NCBI GenBank assembly: GCA_963817915.1
Contig: CAWFQL010000012.1
Location: 32,001-96,000, forward strand
Length of the DNA: 64,000 nucleotides
Direction: 5' to 3'
From: an uncultured candidate division Zixibacteria bacterium
GTDB lineage: Bacteria > Zixibacteria > MSB-5A5 > UBA10806
Shown here piece by piece: positions 6,239 to 56,330 of the stretch. Below the pieces are notes generated by a model. It was not told where the DNA came from. It saw nothing but the letters and a program-made list of their open reading frames with translations, and searched no databases. The position numbers and the translations under genes are program-made. Numbering within the stretch: the stretch's first letter is position 1; each line of letters opens with the position of its first letter.

Positions 6239-8474
6239 TTAGATAAACAGCGGCGCTAAGACCAATGTTATAGTCGATAGCAGTTTTATCAAGACATGTA
6301 ATGACGGCCCCGCCGTATCCTTGAAGGGATCGCCGACCGTATCGCCGACCACCGCCGCGCTGTGAGTCGGATTCTTGATCTTTTTACCGTCCGGGCCTGT
6401 TATATACTTGCCGCCATAGGCGCCGGATTCGATATACTTTTTGGCATTGTCCCAGGCTCCGCCGCCATTATTTAGCATGAGCGCCAGAAGAATTCCGGCA
6501 ATCGTACCGACCATCAATAACGCCGCCACCGATTGAGCGGCAATCAGCGGGTCTTCCGGTGTGATGAAGATTTTGAAGACTGTGCCGACTATAATCGGAG
6601 TCAGAACTACCAGCAAGCCCGGCAATATCATCTGCCTTAACGCCGCCTTTGTAACAATATCAACACAGGTGCCGTAATCCGGTTCGAAATTCTTGGGGAA
6701 CTGAATCATATCATTCTCGCGCGGCAATGACGCGTACTGTCTGCGAACTTCGGCGATAATCGCCTGAGCCGCCTTGCCGACCGCGCGTATCGCCATCGAT
6801 GTGAACAAGAACACCAGCATCGCGCCTAATAACGCGCCGACAAACACGACCGGTTTCGACAGATCGACATTGAAGATAAATCCGCTGTCCAGTCCGGCGT
6901 ACTGCTTGACCTCATCCATGTAAGCCTGGAATAACAAAAATGCCGCCAACGCCGCCGAGCCGATGGCATAGCCTTTTGTCAACGCCTTGGTAGTGTTACC
7001 AACAGAATCCAGTCTGTCGGTTTTCTTGCGAATCTCTTCCGGCTGTTGTGACATCTCCACGATGCCGCCGGCGTTATCTGTTATAGGCCCGAATGTATCC
7101 ATTGCCAATATATAGGCCGCGGTCGCGAGCATTCCCATGGTGGCTACCGCTGTGCCGAAAAGTCCCGGCGTTGGGAAGGCCGCTCGATTGTCCGAGAAAA
7201 TATGATGCCAGAAGCGCCGCGCCCATGACCAATGTCGGATAGGCGGTGCATTCGAAACCGACCGCTATGCCTGATATAATATTGGTCGCCGGGCCAGTCT
7301 GCGAAGCCTCCGCAATCGATTTGACTGGACGGTATTTATATTCGGTGTAGTATTGTGTTATATAAACAAATGCCACCGATGTCAGCACTCCCATGATGCC
7401 GCATAAGAAGAAATGCCACCATGCCTGCGGAGCTTGCGGGCTATTCAAAAGCCAATAGGTCGCGCCGCCGAAGGCTATCATCGCCAGGATAACCGCTACA
7501 TAATAGCCGCGGTTCAAGGCTGTCATCGGATCCATTTTCTCCTGCTTGTCCAATTTAACAAACATGATACCAACGATCGAGGCTATGATTCCAAATGCGC
7601 GCGCTACCAATGGGAACATGATCACCCCGATTATGCCCCACGAGAATTCCATGCTCGCCTTCTGGGCTGTTGCCGCAAGCGACGCGCCCAATATCATTGC
7701 GCCGATATTTTCGGCAGCGGTCGACTCAAATAGATCGGCTCCACGACCGGCGCAATCGCCGACATTATCACCGACTAAATCTGCAATTACAGCAGGGTTG
7801 CGAGGATCGTCTTCAGGGATACCAGCTTCGACTTTACCCACGAGATCGGCTCCAACATCAGCGGCCTTGGTATAAATACCGCCGCCAAGCTGGGCAAATA
7901 GCGCTACAAATGACGCGCCGAATCCATAGCCGACAATCAAAAGCGGTATTTTGGTTGGCTCGATTGCGCTTATCCAATGAACAAGAGCATATAAGCCCGA
8001 TACTCCCAGCAAGCTCATCGAAACAACCAATAACCCCGATACCGCGCCGCCGCGAAGGGCGATACGCAAGGCGTCATTCAGGCTCGATAAGGCCGCATGG
8101 GCGGTTCTGATATTGCTTCGTATCGAAATCCACATTCCGACATAGCCCGCGAAGACCGAGCATAACGCCCCGAATACAAATGATATCGTAATCCATGTTG
8201 CCAGTTCCAGCGAGCTGCCGACAGGATCGAAGTCCCGGTGGCTTCGAATAAAACCGTAGCCGATAAACAGCAACGCCGCCAAGACCAACGCCAGCAACAA
8301 AATAGTGCGGTTTTGTCTTCTCAGGAACGCCTCGGCACCGGCTTTGATAGCATTCGAGATTTTTTGCATCGCCTCGCTACCGGTACTGTGCTTGAGTACC
8401 CATCGACTGAGATAATAGGCGAACGCAAGCCCGGCTATACTGATTGCAATGACCAATAAAATCAATTCCTGCAT
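6239..8474 (-). CDS. hppA: Membrane-bound H+-translocating pyrophosphatase, K+-independent type; +1 frameshift near 7165
   Basis: GGGIYTKAADVGADLVGKVE, DNVGDCAG, GNTTK (Lys determinant), GDTVGDPFKDTAGP; removing one G from GCCGGGACTT joins the two ORFs. Confidence 0.92.
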
Positions 8475-47246: not shown

Positions 47247-48850
47247 TTAGCGATTCTGACATCCTGGTTATCGGCTCAGGCATTGGCGGCTTGTACTTCG
47301 CGCTTAAGGCCGCTGAGTTCGGCAAAGTGGCCGTGATTACAAAAAAAGCCCGAATGGACGCCGCCACGAATCTAGCACAAGGCGGAATCGCTTCTGTAAT
47401 GTCTAATATGGATTCGTATGATGCCCATATCAAAGACACTCTTGTCGCGGGCGCCGGTCTTTGTCACTCCGATATAGTCGAAAAAGTTGTCAAATCGGGC
47501 CCGGAATGTATCGATCAATTGGCTAAGATCGGTGTCGAATTCTCATCGAGCACTCAAAAAGGTATTCTCGATTTGGGACGTGAAGGCGGCCATTCCCAGA
47601 AACGAGTAGTTCACGCCGCCGATTTTACCGGCAGAGCCATAGAACAGGCGTTGATAAACAAGACTCGAAGCCATCCCAATATAGAAATTTACGAACATTT
47701 TTATGCCATTGATCTGGTAACCCAGCACCATCTCAAGGGCCGCGGCGCCAAGGTTGATGGTCCAGTATGCTATGGCGCGTACGCTCTCGACACTTCATCC
47801 AATAGAGTGCGCGCATTTCGTTCGAAGATAACCATGCTCGCCACCGGTGGCGGCGGACGGATATACTACCATACTACCAATCCGGATATTGCCACTGGAG
47901 ATGGTGTCGCTATGGCATATCTGGCAGGCGCACGAATCGGCAATCTTGAATTTGTGCAATTTCACCCGACAACATTGTATCATCCCGAGGGCGATTCATT
48001 TTTGATTTCCGAGGCTGTCAGGGGAGAGGGCGGTAAACTTGTTCTGAAGAGTGGTGAACATTTCATGAAGAAATATCATCCTCTGGCCGAACTGGCTCCT
48101 CGCGATATAGTCGCTCGCGCCATCGATTCGGAACTAAAAAAGGCCGGTGAGCAATGTGTATATCTCGATGTTACTCACCTTGGCAGGGAATTTCTCGAAA
48201 AACGTTTTCCTACAATATTTAAACGATGCCTTGAATTGGGAATCAATATTGCCAATGAGCCGATACCGGTCGTGCCCGCGGCGCATTATTTCTGCGGCGG
48301 AGTTGTATCCGATGAATACGGAAGAACTGATATCCGCAATCTCTATGCTTGCGGCGAAGTTGCCATGACAGGTATGCATGGTGCAAATCGTCTGGCCTCC
48401 AATTCATTGCTCGAGGCGGTCGCGTTTTCCGAATTTGCCTATGAGAAAATACAAAACGAATTTCCGAAAATTGAAAAGCCGGCCGATATACCGCCCTGGG
48501 ATGAATCAGGTGTGTTCGATTCCGAAGAATGGGTGATTGTTTCTCATGATCGCAATACGCTTACAAGGATGATGTGGGATTACGTGGGAATAGTCCGTTC
48601 AGATAATCGTCTTCAAAAAGCCCATGAACGTTGCCAGCTCATGACCCGCGATATTATGGAATTCTATAAGAAAAATCCGGTAAGATCCGATGTAATCGAA
48701 TTGCGCAATATGGCTATCACCGCTGATCTGCTTATCAAATCGGCTATCATGCGCAAGGAATCGCGCGGCCTGCATTACAATATTGATTACCCTCTGAAAG
48801 ATGACGTTAATTTTCTCCGGGATACGATCATAGGGGAGGGGCCTAAATGA
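47243..48850 (+). CDS. nadB: L-aspartate oxidase
   Basis: AQGGIA, EGGHS, QFHPT, SEAVRGEG, HGANRLASNSLLE, ESRGLH. Confidence 0.95.
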   Translation: MISDSDILVIGSGIGGLYFALKAAEFGKVAVITKKARMDAATNLAQGGIASVMSNMDSYDAHIKDTLVAGAGLCHSDIVEKVVKSGPECIDQLAKIGVEFSSSTQKGILDLGREGGHSQKRVVHAADFTGRAIEQALINKTRSHPNIEIYEHFYAIDLVTQHHLKGRGAKVDGPVCYGAYALDTSSNRVRAFRSKITMLATGGGGRIYYHTTNPDIATGDGVAMAYLAGARIGNLEFVQFHPTTLYHPEGDSFLISEAVRGEGGKLVLKSGEHFMKKYHPLAELAPRDIVARAIDSELKKAGEQCVYLDVTHLGREFLEKRFPTIFKRCLELGINIANEPIPVVPAAHYFCGGVVSDEYGRTDIRNLYACGEVAMTGMHGANRLASNSLLEAVAFSEFAYEKIQNEFPKIEKPADIPPWDESGVFDSEEWVIVSHDRNTLTRMMWDYVGIVRSDNRLQKAHERCQLMTRDIMEFYKKNPVRSDVIELRNMAITADLLIKSAIMRKESRGLHYNIDYPLKDDVNFLRDTIIGEGPK

Positions 48851-50386
48851 CACCATCCCAGAAAATTCTGATAATCGATTATGGCTCTCAATATACGCAG
48901 CTTATCGCGCGCCGAGTTCGAGAGCAGAATGTTTTTTCCGAGATAATCAGCTGCTATCGCAAAGTTGACGATTATGATTTTTCGAATGTTGTCGGAATAA
49001 TTTTATCGGGCGGGCCATCGTCGGTATTTGATAAAGGTGCGCCAAAATTAGACAAGAATTTTATAAGGCTCAACATACCTGTTCTGGCTGTCTGTTATGG
49101 GCTTCAGCTTGCTGGCTCACAATCTTGGCGGCAAAGTAGCTCGTTCCCATAAACGAGAATACGGCCGGGCGGAAATGGCAATCAAGGGAGAATCGATACT
49201 TCTCGCTGGAATGCCATTGAAAAGCCAGGTCTGGATGAGTCATGGCGATCATGTGGATATCCTACCTCTGGGTTATAAGACTATCGGGTCTACAGAGACA
49301 ATTCCACACGCGGCGGTCATGAACTCCGAATTAAATATTTACGGTGTGCAATTTCATCCCGAAGTCGCTCATACGGAATATGGCTCGATAATTCTTCGCA
49401 ATTTCCTTTTTGATATCTGCAAATGCCGCGGAGACTGGTCGCCGCAATCGTTTATTGAAAACACTATCGATGAAATTCAACGGCAAACATCCGGCGGCAA
49501 GGTAATATGCGCCTTATCGGGCGGAGTCGATTCCGCGGTCGTTGCAATGCTTCTAAATAGGGCTATCGGTAAGAAAGCGATTTCGATATTTATCGATAAT
49601 GGTCTTTTGCGTTTGAATGAAGCCAAAGAAGTATCTTCGGCTTTCAGGAAATTCGGGATAAATCTAAAGACTATCGATTCCTCGAAGCTTTTTCTCTCTC
49701 GTCTTAAGGGCATCACCGATCCTGAAAAAAAACGAGCCCGAATCGGAAGGGCATTTATCGAAGTTTTTACTAAAGAGGCGGCCAAAATTGGCAAGGTCGA
49801 TTTTCTCGCGCAGGGGACATTATATCCGGACCTGATCGAATCGGTTTCATTCAGGGGGCCGTCACAGACAATCAAAACTCACCATAATGTCGGCGGTCTC
49901 CCCAAACGGATGCGGCTGAAATTGATCGAACCGTTAAAAGAGCTTTTCAAAGATGAGGTCCGCGCGGTTGGGCGACAGCTTGGGCTGCCGGATGAATTCA
50001 TTAAACGGCATCCATTTCCGGGGCCTGGACTGGCGGTCAGAATCCTCGGTTCTATTACGCCTGAACGGTTATCGATTCTTCGTCAGGCCGATAATATCTT
50101 CATCTCGGAATTGCGCAATTGGGAATTATATGACGATGTCTGGCAGGCGTTGGCGGTACTGCTTCCTGTGCAATCGGTCGGTGTAATGGGCGATGAAAGA
50201 ACTTACGAGAATGTGATCGCCTTACGCGCGGTTACTTCGCTCGATGCCATGACTGCCGATTGGGCCCGGCTGCCCGATGATTTCCTATCGTTTGTATCCA
50301 ATCGGATAATCAATGAAGTCAAAGGCATTAATCGCGTAGTTTACGATATATCATCCAAACCACCAGCAACAATAGAGTGGGAATAA
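48847..50386 (+). CDS. guaA: GMP synthase (glutamine-hydrolysing); +1 frameshift near 49110
   Basis: [47 protein letters not shown]. Confidence 0.95.
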
Positions 50387-51691: not shown

Positions 51692-51843
51692 ATTTTTCTC
51701 CTGTAATCAATTCTAAGCAAGATCGCCTTTTTGGCGTAAATAGATAAATGGGACTCTGCCCAAAATACTGCCGTTGACTATAATAAATTTGCCTCCGAAT
51801 ACCAAATAAAATTATCAGGAGCATTTGCTGATAATACCTGCGC

Positions 51844-51876
51844 AAAAAAAACCGCGAATTACATCATAATTCGCGG
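51844..51876 (-). terminator. Intrinsic terminator after the DUF1573 gene
   Basis: CCGCGAATTA-5 nt-TAATTCGCGG followed by T8 on the minus strand. Confidence 0.82.
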
Positions 51877-51907
51877 CTTCAATAATCCGATTAAACTAAG
51901 CGAAATT

Positions 51908-52825
51908 TCATGGTCCGGTTTTGGGCTTAGCCTTGGATGTGTCTATCGTCCCCATTGTACCCTTTTGGGGTATATTCTTCGCAGCTGAGGTATCTGCCGG
52001 AAATGCCTGAATCTTGAATGCGGAACTGGAGTCCGGTTTTGTCTGGAATCCTTTTTGTCCCGGAGTAGGAGGCGAGAATGTTTTCTGGGCTGGAGTCGTT
52101 GGCGCCGGTTTTGGCAGCTGTACCGGCGGCGGTTTTAGGCCCTTCATAACAACCGGAATCGTAAATTTTTGCTGGCCATTTCCGGTCAAAGCGAAGGTGA
52201 GTGCCTGTGTACTGTCCAGATCGAAAAACTCGCCTTTCCATTGAAACTCGATTGTACCCTTATCATGCGGTTTTATTTTCTCATCCTTGATTTTCATTTT
52301 CAGATCGCCCTCAGGGCCGAAAAGCGAGGCTAATTGCAAGGTTGAATCGCTTTTATTCTCTAAAACCAATTTGACCTTTTTATTGGCGTCTTTGGTAAAA
52401 TTGACAATGCTCGGCGTATACTTGAATGGCAGCAATGAATCATTTTCCGCGAAAACCTTAGCTGAGAATCCGATTTTCACACTGAGGCTTGTGGAATCAT
52501 TGCAAGATATCGTCGCGTTTTTAACGACTGCCGACTTGGTGTTTCTTGTATTGAAAATTAATTCCACGACCGTGGAATCACCCGGCGCCAATTTGTTTTT
52601 ATGCAATGGCGCGCTTGTGCATCCTCACCCAGGCTTGACGCTGAGTATCCTCAACGTGTCATCGCCGATGTTTAAAATCCAATACGCGTGACGCGCAATC
52701 GAATTCTGAGGAATATTGCCGAAATCCCAATCCTTCTCGGGAACCGAAATCTTCGGGCCGGCGAATACAATCGATGACAGAATCAGTAAGAATATCAACG
52801 CCAAAATTGTCATTTTTTTCATCAA
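51908..52825 (-). CDS. Exported DUF1573 (Ig-like) protein with an in-frame TGA at the CGC motif; predicted selenoprotein, 305 aa on readthrough
   Basis: ORFs 52625-52825 and 51908-52606 are in the same frame: WDFG...NIGDDTLRILSVKPG(TGA)GCTSAPLHKNKLAPGDS; Pro-rich tail. Confidence 0.78.
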
Positions 52826-52896
52826 GAATCCTCCGAGTTGCTCAAATAGAACTCAATTACTCATTCGCCGTTAATATCGGCATTTTATTTTAGCAG

Positions 52897-53811
52897 TCAA
52901 CCTAATTTTGATCTCTTTGCCAGGTATCCGAAAAGCGCCTTGTCAAATGGGACTGATGTATCCAGTAAGTGATAGTCAATCTGGGATTCCCGGCATGCCC
53001 TGGAAATTTTCTCGATATATATATCGAGTCGTTTGATGTATTCGCCGCGTATCTGCCAGGGGTCGGTCAGGAGCTCGGCGCCGGTCTCCATGTCCCTAAA
53101 ACGGGCTTCTGTGCCGTAGTTAAAATTTCTTTCAAATGGGTCGAGCACCTGAAATACTATTACCTCATGCTGGCGATGACGGAAATGCTTAAGTCCCAAA
53201 ATCATCTTGTCAGGATCATCAAGCAAATCTGAGATAACGATAATCAAGCCCCGCCTCTTAATGCGATCAGCCAATTCATGAAACGCGATCGAGGATTCTG
53301 TCCGGCTTGAAGGCAGAGTACTTCCGAGCTGCTGTAGAATTGGAGTTATATGAGATCGAGCCCCCTTGGGAGGGATATAATTGCGCACCTTTTCATCGTA
53401 AACGAGAAGCCCTGGCGCATCCTGTTGGCGGAGCATAAGATAGGACAATGCCGCCGCCAGATAAGATCCATATTCGAGCTTGGTGATTCCGTTGGATTTG
53501 TATCCCATCGAATTGGAAGCATCAAGCAGGATGTAGGCTTTTAAGTTGGTTTCTTCCTCGAACTGCTTGATATAAAAACGATCGGATTTTCCGTAGATTT
53601 TCCAATCGATATGCCTGAAATCATCACCCGGCATGTACTGCCGATGCTCCGCGAATTCGACCGAAAATCCATGATATGGGGATCGATGCAACCCGACTAT
53701 AAAACCCTCGACCACAAGACGGGCTTTAAGTTCAATTGAAGCCAATTTGCTGACAGTCGCAGGGTCAAGGAATTTGCGATAATCGCTTTGTTTTACCCGT
53801 TCTTCAGACAT
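52897..53811 (-). CDS. DUF58 domain (vWA-like) protein
   Basis: GLHRSPYHGFSVEFAEHRQYMPGDD..IDWK, LDASNSM, VISDL. Confidence 0.9.
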   Translation of the reverse strand: MSEERVKQSDYRKFLDPATVSKLASIELKARLVVEGFIVGLHRSPYHGFSVEFAEHRQYMPGDDFRHIDWKIYGKSDRFYIKQFEEETNLKAYILLDASNSMGYKSNGITKLEYGSYLAAALSYLMLRQQDAPGLLVYDEKVRNYIPPKGARSHITPILQQLGSTLPSSRTESSIAFHELADRIKRRGLIIVISDLLDDPDKMILGLKHFRHRQHEVIVFQVLDPFERNFNYGTEARFRDMETGAELLTDPWQIRGEYIKRLDIYIEKISRACRESQIDYHLLDTSVPFDKALFGYLAKRSKLG

Positions 53812-53908: not shown

Positions 53909-55102
53909 TTACTTGAGCAAAACCAGCCTTGTTATTTCTTTCTTTTCACCCGTGGCCAATAAGGCAAAATATACTCCAGATGAAAAATTGCCGGCATTCC
54001 AGATAACCTCATGCGATCCGGACGACATCTTCCTATCGAGAAGCGTTACCATTTTCCGTCCAAGAATATCGTATATATCGAGTTTTATATTTTCCTCACG
54101 GGCCAGGCTAAATTTAATGATTGTCTGAGAATTAAAAGGATTTGGATATGATTCTATCGAAGACAGAGTCCGAGGCAGTTTTATTTCGTCCGTCGAAGTT
54201 GCGGTTTTTTCGGATAAGAAAAGCTGCGAAAAATAATCTGTCCCGCCGAAAATATATTTATCGAAGAAAAGTAGATTGCCGCTCTCGGTTATAAATGAAT
54301 TTTCATTGATGCAGGCTGACATTGTGTCGGGCCATTCGAACCTGTTGATATTGTTGGGGAGGGCTACGGCTCGCTGCCAGGCTCCATTTTCATAACGGGA
54401 TTTCATCAAAAGATTGATTCTTCGGGAATATATATAATCTGTAAAATAGAGGCTCAATTCGCTCGGATCATAAAAAGCGCTGTAATCGTAGTGACCCTGT
54501 ATATTGATAACATCAGGCATCCGCACCGCTGCTTGCCAGACGCCGTTAACAAATTCGCTTTTGTAAATAGCTCTATTATCGCCGGAGCCGACCCGATCGA
54601 AAAATAGACTGTTCGATCCGGCCGCCAGGCTGGGTTTGAATTCCTCGCTGGATGTGTTAATCGAATCACCCAAATTGGTCGGTGTTTGCCAGACGCCATT
54701 CGATTTGATTGACATCCAGATATCGGAATTTCCCCTGGTTCCGGGCCTGTCTGAACAAAACAGCAGCGTGTCGCCGCCGCCATTAATAAAGGGCATAGTG
54801 CTGCCATAACCTTCGATATTGATTGGCGCGGCCATAAGTGTGGGCGTAGTCCAATACCGCTGGCCGTTATTGCTGAAAGTCATGCGCGATGTATATATCC
54901 TGGCATCTCTGAAATGCCAGAAATAGACGTGGCGGCAATATGTATCGAAATATAATGTCGAATCTTGTTCGCAATATGACGGATTGAAATTTCCGGGATA
55001 TATCGGTTGGCCTATTTCTATGGGTTGATAAGGTCCCCAATCCTGGGCGTACGATAAGGAGCATGCTCCGATGATTGTCAATGATACTACAAATTTAAGC
55101 AT
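53909..55102 (-). CDS. Secreted PD40/WD40-like propeller protein with a T9SS-type C-terminal domain (tandem paralog A)
   Basis: SYAQDWGP; DTLLFCSDRPG...DIW...W..P.NLG..IN; YPNPFN...SGVYF. Confidence 0.8.
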   Translation of the reverse strand: MLKFVVSLTIIGACSLSYAQDWGPYQPIEIGQPIYPGNFNPSYCEQDSTLYFDTYCRHVYFWHFRDARIYTSRMTFSNNGQRYWTTPTLMAAPINIEGYGSTMPFINGGGDTLLFCSDRPGTRGNSDIWMSIKSNGVWQTPTNLGDSINTSSEEFKPSLAAGSNSLFFDRVGSGDNRAIYKSEFVNGVWQAAVRMPDVINIQGHYDYSAFYDPSELSLYFTDYIYSRRINLLMKSRYENGAWQRAVALPNNINRFEWPDTMSACINENSFITESGNLLFFDKYIFGGTDYFSQLFLSEKTATSTDEIKLPRTLSSIESYPNPFNSQTIIKFSLAREENIKLDIYDILGRKMVTLLDRKMSSGSHEVIWNAGNFSSGVYFALLATGEKKEITRLVLLK

Positions 55103-55127: not shown

Positions 55128-56330
55128 TTATTTAAGCAGAGTAAGCTTGATACTTTCGAATTTATTCGTTGTCTGCAATCGAGCGAAATAAATCCCGGTG
55201 GCAACATTACCTGCATCCCAAGTTATACTATGATTACCTGCCGATAGGTTCCGGTCGACCAACGTCTCGACCTTCCGGCCCAACAAATCATAAATATCAA
55301 TTTTCACTGCGTCACTGGCCGAGAGATTGAATTTAATCGTCGCCTGCGAATTGAAGGGATTAGGATACGATTCAATGGCCGAAAAGTTCTTGGGCTGATC
55401 CAAATCGCCTTCGATTCCAACTGCCCTTTCGGAAAAATACATAAACGAATAATGGTCCGGATATTCACACAGTATAAATTTATTGAAGAAAAATTTCGTT
55501 CTGTCATAGCTCATAAAAGCATTTTCATTGGTGCAGTACGATAGAGAATCGGGATCGATGCAGGAAAAACCGTTGATATTCTCATCGAGCGGCTCCGGTT
55601 CCTGCCACGAGCCGTTAACATTAGCTGATTTCATCATTAGTTGAATTCTTCCATATGGATCACTATCGGTATAATATAAGACATTTTCTAAGGGGTCGAA
55701 AAACGGCGCATATGTATAGTACCCGGGTGTATTAATAATATCGGGCAGACGCTGAGCCGATTGCCAGACACCATCGATAAGCTCGCTTTTATAAATACCT
55801 TCATAATTAGCTATGCCAAATCGCGAGAAATACAAAGCATTTGCCCCCGACACGAAACATGGTTTTAAATCAGATAAATATCTGGAATTAATGGAATCGC
55901 CGAGATTAGCGGGTTCGGTCCAATTTCCATCTATTTGTATGGTGAGCCAGATATCCGCAAAACCTTCTGTTCCCGGTCTTATGGCACTGAAAAAAAGTGA
56001 ATCACCCCCGGCAGTGATAAATGGCATTGCGCTTCCATATTCGTCAATATTAATCGGCGCCGGCATCGCGACGGGATCTGACCAAAATACCTGACCATTT
56101 TGATCTCTTGATAAATGAGACGTATATATCTTGGCATCACTGTGAAAAATACCGGGAAAGGAATTAGTACTGAAATATAGAGTAGAATCACGATCACAGT
56201 ATGATGGGCTAAAATTACCAAATGGGCTATCAGGCGCATTAATATTAATGGCCTGCGCCGGGCCCCAATCCTGCGCGTAGGAAATCGAAACAATTCCCAA
56301 AGTTGCGAAAATCAAAAACAATCTATTCAT
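55128..56330 (-). CDS. Secreted PD40/WD40-like propeller protein with a T9SS-type C-terminal domain (tandem paralog B)
   Basis: SYAQDWGP; same repeat architecture as 53909-55102; YPNPFN...TGIYF. Confidence 0.8.
   Translation of the reverse strand: MNRLFLIFATLGIVSISYAQDWGPAQAININAPDSPFGNFSPSYCDRDSTLYFSTNSFPGIFHSDAKIYTSHLSRDQNGQVFWSDPVAMPAPINIDEYGSAMPFITAGGDSLFFSAIRPGTEGFADIWLTIQIDGNWTEPANLGDSINSRYLSDLKPCFVSGANALYFSRFGIANYEGIYKSELIDGVWQSAQRLPDIINTPGYYTYAPFFDPLENVLYYTDSDPYGRIQLMMKSANVNGSWQEPEPLDENINGFSCIDPDSLSYCTNENAFMSYDRTKFFFNKFILCEYPDHYSFMYFSERAVGIEGDLDQPKNFSAIESYPNPFNSQATIKFNLSASDAVKIDIYDLLGRKVETLVDRNLSAGNHSITWDAGNVATGIYFARLQTTNKFESIKLTLLK

Follow-up and report, generated by a model that had tools for sequence, protein, structure and literature searches.

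A predicted DUF1573 selenoprotein gene, split at its UGA codon by gene callers, in a Zixibacteria genome

The gene and its product

The window analysed here is the whole 64,000-nucleotide stretch of contig CAWFQL010000012.1 (positions 32,001 to 96,000, assembly GCA_963817915.1) from an uncultured candidate division Zixibacteria bacterium. On its minus strand lies a gene that gene callers have cut in two at an in-frame TGA. The evidence points strongly to a single gene for an exported, two-domain DUF1573 protein, with the TGA at codon 66 serving as the codon for selenocysteine (Sec, U). The selenoprotein family concerned has been known since 2007, and the window gene is an unannotated further member of it. 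Coordinates are those of the window unless a contig or locus is named.

The full-length gene occupies 51908..52822 (-) and comprises 304 codons and a TGA stop (51908-51910), with its ATG at 52822-52820. Once TGA-66 is read through, a single open frame runs from 52822 to 51908, and the TGA at 52627-52625 is its sole interruption. The read-through product of 304 residues includes ...SVKPG-U-GCTSAPLHKNKLAPGDSTVVELIF..., and the frame past the TGA reads GCTSAPLHKNKLAPGDS... and continues to the stop at 51910-51908. A Shine-Dalgarno sequence, GGAGG (52830..52834, -), can be read directly in the sequence 7 bases ahead of the ATG.

The list of open reading frames (ORFs) presents this gene as two pieces. 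The first is a 66-amino-acid ORF (52625..52825, -) that ends in TGA 52627-52625 and begins with a TTG at 52825, one codon ahead of the ATG. With GGAGG 7 bases to its 5' side, the ATG at 52822 is a likelier start than this mechanical TTG. The second is a 232-amino-acid ORF (51908..52606, -) with a TTG start and no purine-rich Shine-Dalgarno stretch ahead of it. The protein database entry for the window gene consists of this 232-amino-acid downstream piece only (P0002). An earlier sequence-only reading of the window had pointed out both the frame that continues unbroken after the 66-amino-acid ORF and the downstream TTG start without a ribosome-binding site, and both are as it described them. 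Its further statement, that a terminator follows only the full-length gene, is correct in its first part: an intrinsic terminator with a 15-bp hairpin and then a U run (51844..51880, -), missed by a simple terminator scan, lies 3' of the full-length stop. The word "only" holds loosely, because a hairpin within the gene (52580-52559) was also flagged as terminator-like.

The predicted product begins with a signal peptide (residues 1-21; 52760..52822, -) consisting of MKK, a hydrophobic core, and V-F-A before G-P, without a lipobox Cys. It resembles a cleavable, signal peptidase I-type signal, with the probable cleavage site placed by the -3/-1 rule. In the AlphaFold2 model, a helix at residues 2-18 stands ahead of the first domain. 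That domain, a DUF1573 or HYDIN-VesB-like immunoglobulin (Ig) domain at residues 26-112 (52487..52747, -), matches PF07610 at 74.4 bits, against a gathering cut-off of 26.1, and PF22544 at 54.1 bits. Because the PF07610 match covers residues 26-112, the domain spans TGA-66.

The model, built on a 33-sequence alignment, has a mean predicted local distance difference test score (pLDDT) of 84.4 and a predicted template modelling score of 0.70, and it contains two beta-sandwich domains. The strands of the first lie within residues 31-124, with pLDDT above 90. The second Ig-like beta-sandwich domain (residues 133-226; 52145..52426, -) is seen in the model and has a weak ASH match (E 0.018). The remainder, residues 227-304 (51911..52144, -), is a Pro/Lys/Thr-rich tail predicted to be disordered: mean pLDDT per 10-residue block drops from 77 to 38-47, and residues 258-261 and 264-299 fall below 50. 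Ortholog products of 256-414 amino acids share the layout of the window gene, with tails that vary in length and sequence. Several orthologs (L015, L016, L036) end in W-P-P-K after the disordered tail, an ending that the window protein does not have and that may be a sorting or anchoring motif.

Nine positions are invariant in the 33 sequences (G35, V62, G65, C/U66, G67, C68, G81, D128, and N156). Nearly invariant are D33, F34, H45, G53, D55, L57, I59, P64, T69, S83, F90, K101, N108, and T209. The TGA had been placed by the sequence-only reading on the first Cys of a conserved DUF1573 motif, and this is borne out by the PF07610 match across the TGA and by the invariant G65-C/U66-G67-C68.

TGA and cysteine codons among relatives

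The general test applied here is that of the selenoprotein-gene criteria in the methods part of PMC1976440: an in-frame TGA that aligns with Cys in homologs and has conserved flanks on both sides, a stable stem-loop just 3' of the TGA, and selA, selB, selC (the gene for tRNA-Sec), and selD in the genome. Each of these is found for the window gene.

UGA codon 66 (52625..52627, -) takes the first position of the motif U-G-C, and the codon of its partner, Cys68 (52619..52621, -), stands in an invariant column of the 33-sequence alignment. At the column of codon 66, TGA is present in 23 distinct sequences, the window included, and TGC or TGT in 9, all at the first Cys of G-C-G-C-T. These counts come from loci L015-L049, with a motif filter that demands open frames on both sides of the column. 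The 22 distinct TGA forms beyond the window belong to other assemblies and carry the TGA at the same column, with protein identity of 38-49% on both flanks. The alternation of TGA and Cys that the sequence-only reading had suggested looking for is therefore present among the relatives.

The protein database gives the same picture. Full-length entries with PGCGCT are Cys forms (P0003, P0004, P0005, P0010, P0011), and the N-terminally truncated entries of other relatives (P0006 to P0009) begin just past the motif, which is the pattern expected where gene callers stop at a TGA. At the DNA level, TGA stands at the column in one metagenome contig and in three of four Zixibacteria/Zixiibacteriota genome loci; the fourth has TGC. 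One of these three TGA genome loci also has a Cys-form paralog downstream.

Across the phylum, 283 of 285 genomes contain a relative with E <= 1e-10, and 18 of the 19 best whole-genome matches contain exactly one TGA. A DNA motif for P-G-U-G-C-T, CCNGGNTGAGGNTGYAC, occurs in 239 of the 285 genomes; the reversed control pattern gives 7 hits. Tandem Sec- and Cys-form DUF1573 paralogs are frequent in other genomes of the phylum (L017/L029 at 727 and 1751; L046 at 1696 and 2603, reverse strand; L040, L042, and L043). A paralog in L049 has C-S-C in place of C-G-C and was not caught by the motif filter.

The window genome itself contains further paralogs. One is of the Cys form (C11:187984-188271). 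Another is a second Sec form, SPG-U-GCTQ, at C5:29846-30425 (L050 about 6847-7430). The two domains of this C5 paralog lie in different frames, as after a 1-base indel, and the ATP-binding cassette (ABC) ATPase gene upstream of it is split into overlapping ORFs (L050 6050-6355 and 6240-6716). Either assembly indel errors or decaying genes would account for both.

Such defects bear on the possibility that TGA-66 is a real stop, arising from a nonsense mutation, a pseudogene, or an assembly error, so that a 65-residue peptide or nothing useful would be made. The source assembly (3.33 Mb in 22 contigs, 93.9% complete) probably contains indel errors or broken genes at other places, gene callers did split the gene, and the database holds P0002 alone. 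Given such errors this locus by itself is weak evidence, and the weight comes from other assemblies: the same-column TGA in 22 further distinct sequences with both flanks conserved, and the P-G-U-G-C-T motif in most genomes of the phylum, are not what a local stop or error predicts. A real stop is accordingly regarded as extremely improbable, and the invariance of the TGA codon and the complete Sec machinery, both described below, argue in the same direction.

Decoding of UGA-66: Sec machinery and downstream hairpins

The genes needed for Sec insertion are clustered outside the window on contig C6 (198047-202493; loci L001, L002, L010, L011). They comprise selA (393.8 bits), selB (a SelB wing domain at 61 bits in a 629-amino-acid frame), selD (357.4 bits), and a tRNA-Sec with anticodon tca that both ARAGORN and Rfam (RF01852, 66.5 bits, gathering score 47) detect. 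The genome search for Sec machinery that had been proposed along with the sequence-only reading thus returned every component. The selD gene has one TGA within its own frame (...VACAG-U-ASK...); a small hairpin comes next, and after it a hairpin of 7-8 bp whose loop contains GGUC. In-frame TGA was not found in the molybdopterin oxidoreductase, AhpC-TSA, and FlpD genes of this genome, for which PF00384, PF00578, and PF02662 were the families checked; all three are families in which Sec is common.

The sequence-only reading had also raised a UGA-recoded Cys as an alternative. In that case a near-cognate or suppressor tRNA would insert Cys or Trp at UGA-66, or UGA would be reassigned, and no selenium would be involved. 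The DUF1573 gene itself stops at a TGA (51910-51908), so UGA is not reassigned genome-wide. The sole tRNA with anticodon tca that ARAGORN finds is the tRNA-Sec. The selD gene of the same genome combines an in-frame TGA with a following hairpin, and the RNA structure described next is tied to TGA forms and absent from Cys forms, as Sec insertion needs. Reading of UGA-66 without selenium is therefore considered very improbable.

Folding of the RNA 3' of UGA-66 gives a first hairpin, hairpin 1 (52585..52612, -; +16..+43, counted from the U of UGA), whose stem is GCGCC/GGCGC and whose loop is A-rich. This hairpin is proposed as the core of a selenocysteine insertion sequence (SECIS). A hairpin beginning 13-21 nt past the UGA is predicted in all 23 Sec forms and is missing from the Cys forms. 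Mean folding energy over nucleotides 13-48 is -14.3 kcal/mol for the 23 Sec forms and -6.4 for the 9 Cys forms (Mann-Whitney p = 3.4e-5, uncorrected for relatedness). Because the encoded protein might itself impose a hairpin, each sequence was compared with 300 synonymous-codon shuffles of its own; 20 of the 23 Sec forms and 1 of the 9 Cys forms beat 95% of their shuffles, and the window hairpin (-10.5 kcal/mol) stands at a fraction of 0.027. The stems are wholly unlike across clades (GCGCC/GGCGC, CCAGGUU/AACCUGG, GGUGCA/UGCACC, CACCUCU/AGAGGUG, and others) and sit a few bases out of register with one another.

A second hairpin, hairpin 2 (52559..52580, -; +48..+69), folds as a stem around a GGUC loop at +57..+60 and is invariant in nucleotide sequence within the ortholog group. 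It is present in the 17 closest distinct orthologs. The codon alignment of these 17 has 31 columns with an invariant residue, of which only five also have an invariant codon: the TGA, S83, T84, V85, and V86. The last four form hairpin 2, and the other 26 columns use 2-5 codons each. The invariance of the hairpin 2 codons while 26 other columns vary indicates selection at the nucleotide level. That the TGA is the only invariant codon apart from those four is difficult to reconcile with a real stop. Of the 285 genomes, 22 have a single copy of the hairpin 2 14-mer, among them the window genome and 12 of the other 13 in its family; the reversed control gives 4 hits. The only public sequencing run listed, X1 (0.03 share of words), has contigs that cover 52546-52586, which is hairpin 2 and the sole part of the gene matched, and not the TGA.

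Two other interpretations of hairpin 2 were considered and rejected. A phylum-wide SECIS consensus does not agree with a 14-mer found in only 22 of 285 genomes, mostly of this ortholog group. A terminator or attenuator formed with the following AUUUUC, as flagged by the terminator scan, does not agree with a U-rich tail that is not kept in the orthologs.

Several points weigh against the Sec interpretation, or against particular parts of it. Covariation for hairpin 1 is not significant in the 13 same-register orthologs, where 55 of 500 shuffles reach the observed score; in these orthologs 5 of its 10 pairs never vary, and the core stem does not change. Support for hairpin 1 consequently comes from the out-of-register clades and from the energy contrasts. 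The loop of hairpin 1 is non-canonical, being A-rich with no G at one fixed place, and Rfam has no match over 51800-52900 at E up to 1. Hairpin 2 is farther from the UGA than canonical bacterial SECIS loops. It is also absent from six more distant Sec forms and from the C5 Sec paralog, which has only a hairpin-1-type structure, and hairpin 1 is for this reason taken as the common element. The probable indel errors of the assembly belong here as well. Finally, NF041425, "OS_HP2 family (seleno)protein", is the top NCBIfam match for the window protein and for all 33 aligned members, and the window protein scores 61.3 bits, under the curated cut-off of 100.

Taken with these points, the probability that the locus is one gene for an exported two-domain DUF1573 selenoprotein of the catalogued kind, with UGA-66 as its Sec codon, is put at roughly 0.93 on sequence evidence; the figure excludes any redox chemistry. 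The split gene had been predicted from the sequence to encode a Sec-containing extracytoplasmic Ig-fold protein, and the alternation, the Sec machinery, and the SECIS-like hairpin all favor that prediction. The UGA would be decoded by SelB and Sec-tRNA(Sec), very probably steered by the mRNA structure just downstream. Hairpin 1, whose shape persists although sequence and register differ from clade to clade, would be the element common to all Sec forms, and hairpin 2 is probably a clade-specific part of the insertion signal. The signal peptide is predicted to take the protein across the inner membrane, where it would fold as two Ig-like domains with a disordered Pro/Lys-rich tail.

The U-G-C loop, neighboring genes, and known systems

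Sec/Cys pairs usually mark redox-active or metal-binding residues, and a UxC redox or metal site had been proposed in the sequence-only reading. The U-G-C loop may work as a redox-active selenol/thiol pair that cycles via a selenenylsulfide and acts on some envelope substrate or partner, a tentative assignment held at a little under even chances. Its main rival is a soft-metal site. The protein would be the same genuine selenoprotein, and the loop, perhaps with His45, would bind Cu(I), Hg, or a similar metal, which would make the protein a chaperone or scavenger of metals in the envelope. All 17 orthologs have His45, and it is nearly invariant in all 33 sequences. The Sec-form ortholog at L034:1048-2289 (G068), with a 414-amino-acid product, adjoins a gene for an HMA plus E1-E2 P-type ATPase and a DUF302 gene. 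In the tables of two reviews, several metal-handling selenoprotein families with UxxC motifs are listed (PMC9312934, PMC13188914). Against the soft-metal site, a metal gene stands alongside in only 1 of 13 ortholog loci and none is present in the window, and a membrane-anchored thioredoxin encoded two genes away in L037 points to thiol redox. The soft-metal site is thus a possible but rather doubtful assignment. The long tail of the L034 product is also unusual in carrying a repeated "...HGQPNHRCDI.VG.PLNSP" unit.

The redox assignment has its own difficulties. No consistent functional partner appears across the neighborhoods examined. Foldseek with the model returns only generic ASH/HYDIN/CEP192-type Ig folds and 2qsv, and a sequence search of the PDB found no solved relative, its sole match being at E 0.93. 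A full-text literature search found no paper describing a function for DUF1573.

In the window, the upstream neighbor is a DUF58 / VWA_2 gene (52897..53811, -), 74 bases away on the same strand in a conserved neighborhood, and an acyl-CoA dehydrogenase gene lies beyond the terminator. Of 13 ortholog loci, 10 have the DUF58 gene directly upstream and 7 have the dehydrogenase gene downstream. These loci come from close relatives, so that the synteny can be put down to common descent. A functional link to the neighboring genes was considered and rejected, since DUF58 is conserved only among close relatives and the neighbors of other paralogs are unrelated. Those of the other paralogs in the window genome are an ars operon with an ABC transporter, or a pyridoxal phosphate enzyme. 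In L039:2340-3679 and L049:211-1421, DUF1573 paralogs have genes for an extracytoplasmic function (ECF) sigma factor and a putative anti-sigma factor directly upstream.

Two further features of the window were observed. Upstream of the DUF58 gene are two adjacent genes for products of about 400 amino acids (53909-55102 and 55128-56330, -), each with a type IX secretion C-terminal sorting domain (Por_Secre_tail). At 48847-50386 (+), a GMP synthase ORF (49097-50386) corresponds to the GATase profile from position 80 onward, with a 101-amino-acid ORF (48847-49152) overlapping its start; this region may hold another assembly frameshift.

The split gene has consequences for annotation. The database holds truncated pieces of the window gene and of several relatives, and the motif search suggests the same split-gene error in most genomes of the phylum. 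An exported Ig-fold U-G-C protein that is kept almost phylum-wide, often beside Cys paralogs, offers a good handle on the function of DUF1573. What deserves further study is the conservation across the phylum and the second hairpin with its invariant codons; the latter is a testable addition to the SECIS and not a new kind of system. A more speculative proposal joins two claims: that the insertion signal of this clade is bipartite, with a shape-only hairpin 1 bringing the GGUC of hairpin 2 to SelB at the ribosome, and that DUF1573 U-G-C proteins may be, besides SelD, a main reason for keeping the Sec machinery. As a pair these claims seem unlikely to hold. Literature searches on DUF1573 and on Zixibacteria with selenocysteine found nothing in print on the phylum-wide spread of Sec DUF1573 or on the second hairpin; in PMC8318568, Zixibacteria appear only as a genome bin.

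Among known systems, the ASH/HYDIN/CEP192 SPD-2 Ig domains and PDB 2qsv, a protein from Porphyromonas gingivalis that has no known function, resemble the model in fold (Foldseek E 6e-13 to 6e-9) and through Pfam PF22544. The match is generic, with identity of 9-16%, and does not point to any active site or function in common.

For the insertion signal, the natural comparison is the E. coli type. In a canonical E. coli-type SECIS, a conserved G (GU) sits in the apical loop at a short, fixed distance from the UGA, and the loop of the fdhF SECIS is of the GGUC type. The window gene resembles it in having a stem-loop about a dozen bases past the UGA and, like the selD hairpin, a GGUC loop in hairpin 2. 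It differs in that hairpin 1, at the canonical distance, has an A-rich loop without a fixed G/U, and in that the GGUC loop of hairpin 2 lies farther out (+57..+60) and is confined to one clade.

The Cys-form DUF1573 proteins of PF07610, which include paralogs in the same genomes, share the fold, the signal peptide, and the invariant G-C-G-C-T loop. They differ in having Cys, encoded by TGC or TGT, in place of Sec, and in lacking the downstream hairpin.

The closest known system is the OS_HP2 family, first reported with two Sec sequences from the Olavius algarvensis symbiont metagenome, that is, from deltaproteobacterial worm symbionts (Zhang and Gladyshev 2007, PMC1976440 Table 2). The Global Ocean Sampling survey of 2008 lists it with pfam07610 and motif UxC (PMC2398784), and the tables of reviews from 2022 and 2026 give a "DUF1573 domain-containing protein" with motif UGC (PMC9312934, PMC13188914). 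The window gene agrees with the catalogued family in the Pfam domain PF07610, in Sec at the first position of the C-x-C motif (P-G-U-G-C-T), and in the abundance of Cys homologs, the comparison being one of domain and motif as listed. It differs in its score, which is below the curated cut-off of NF041425, and in its distribution: the first report came from worm symbionts, and here the Sec-form motif is spread over 239 of 285 genomes of a single phylum, the Zixibacteria. A second Ig-like domain and a long tail predicted to be disordered mark this branch, as does a second, invariant hairpin beyond the SECIS-like one.

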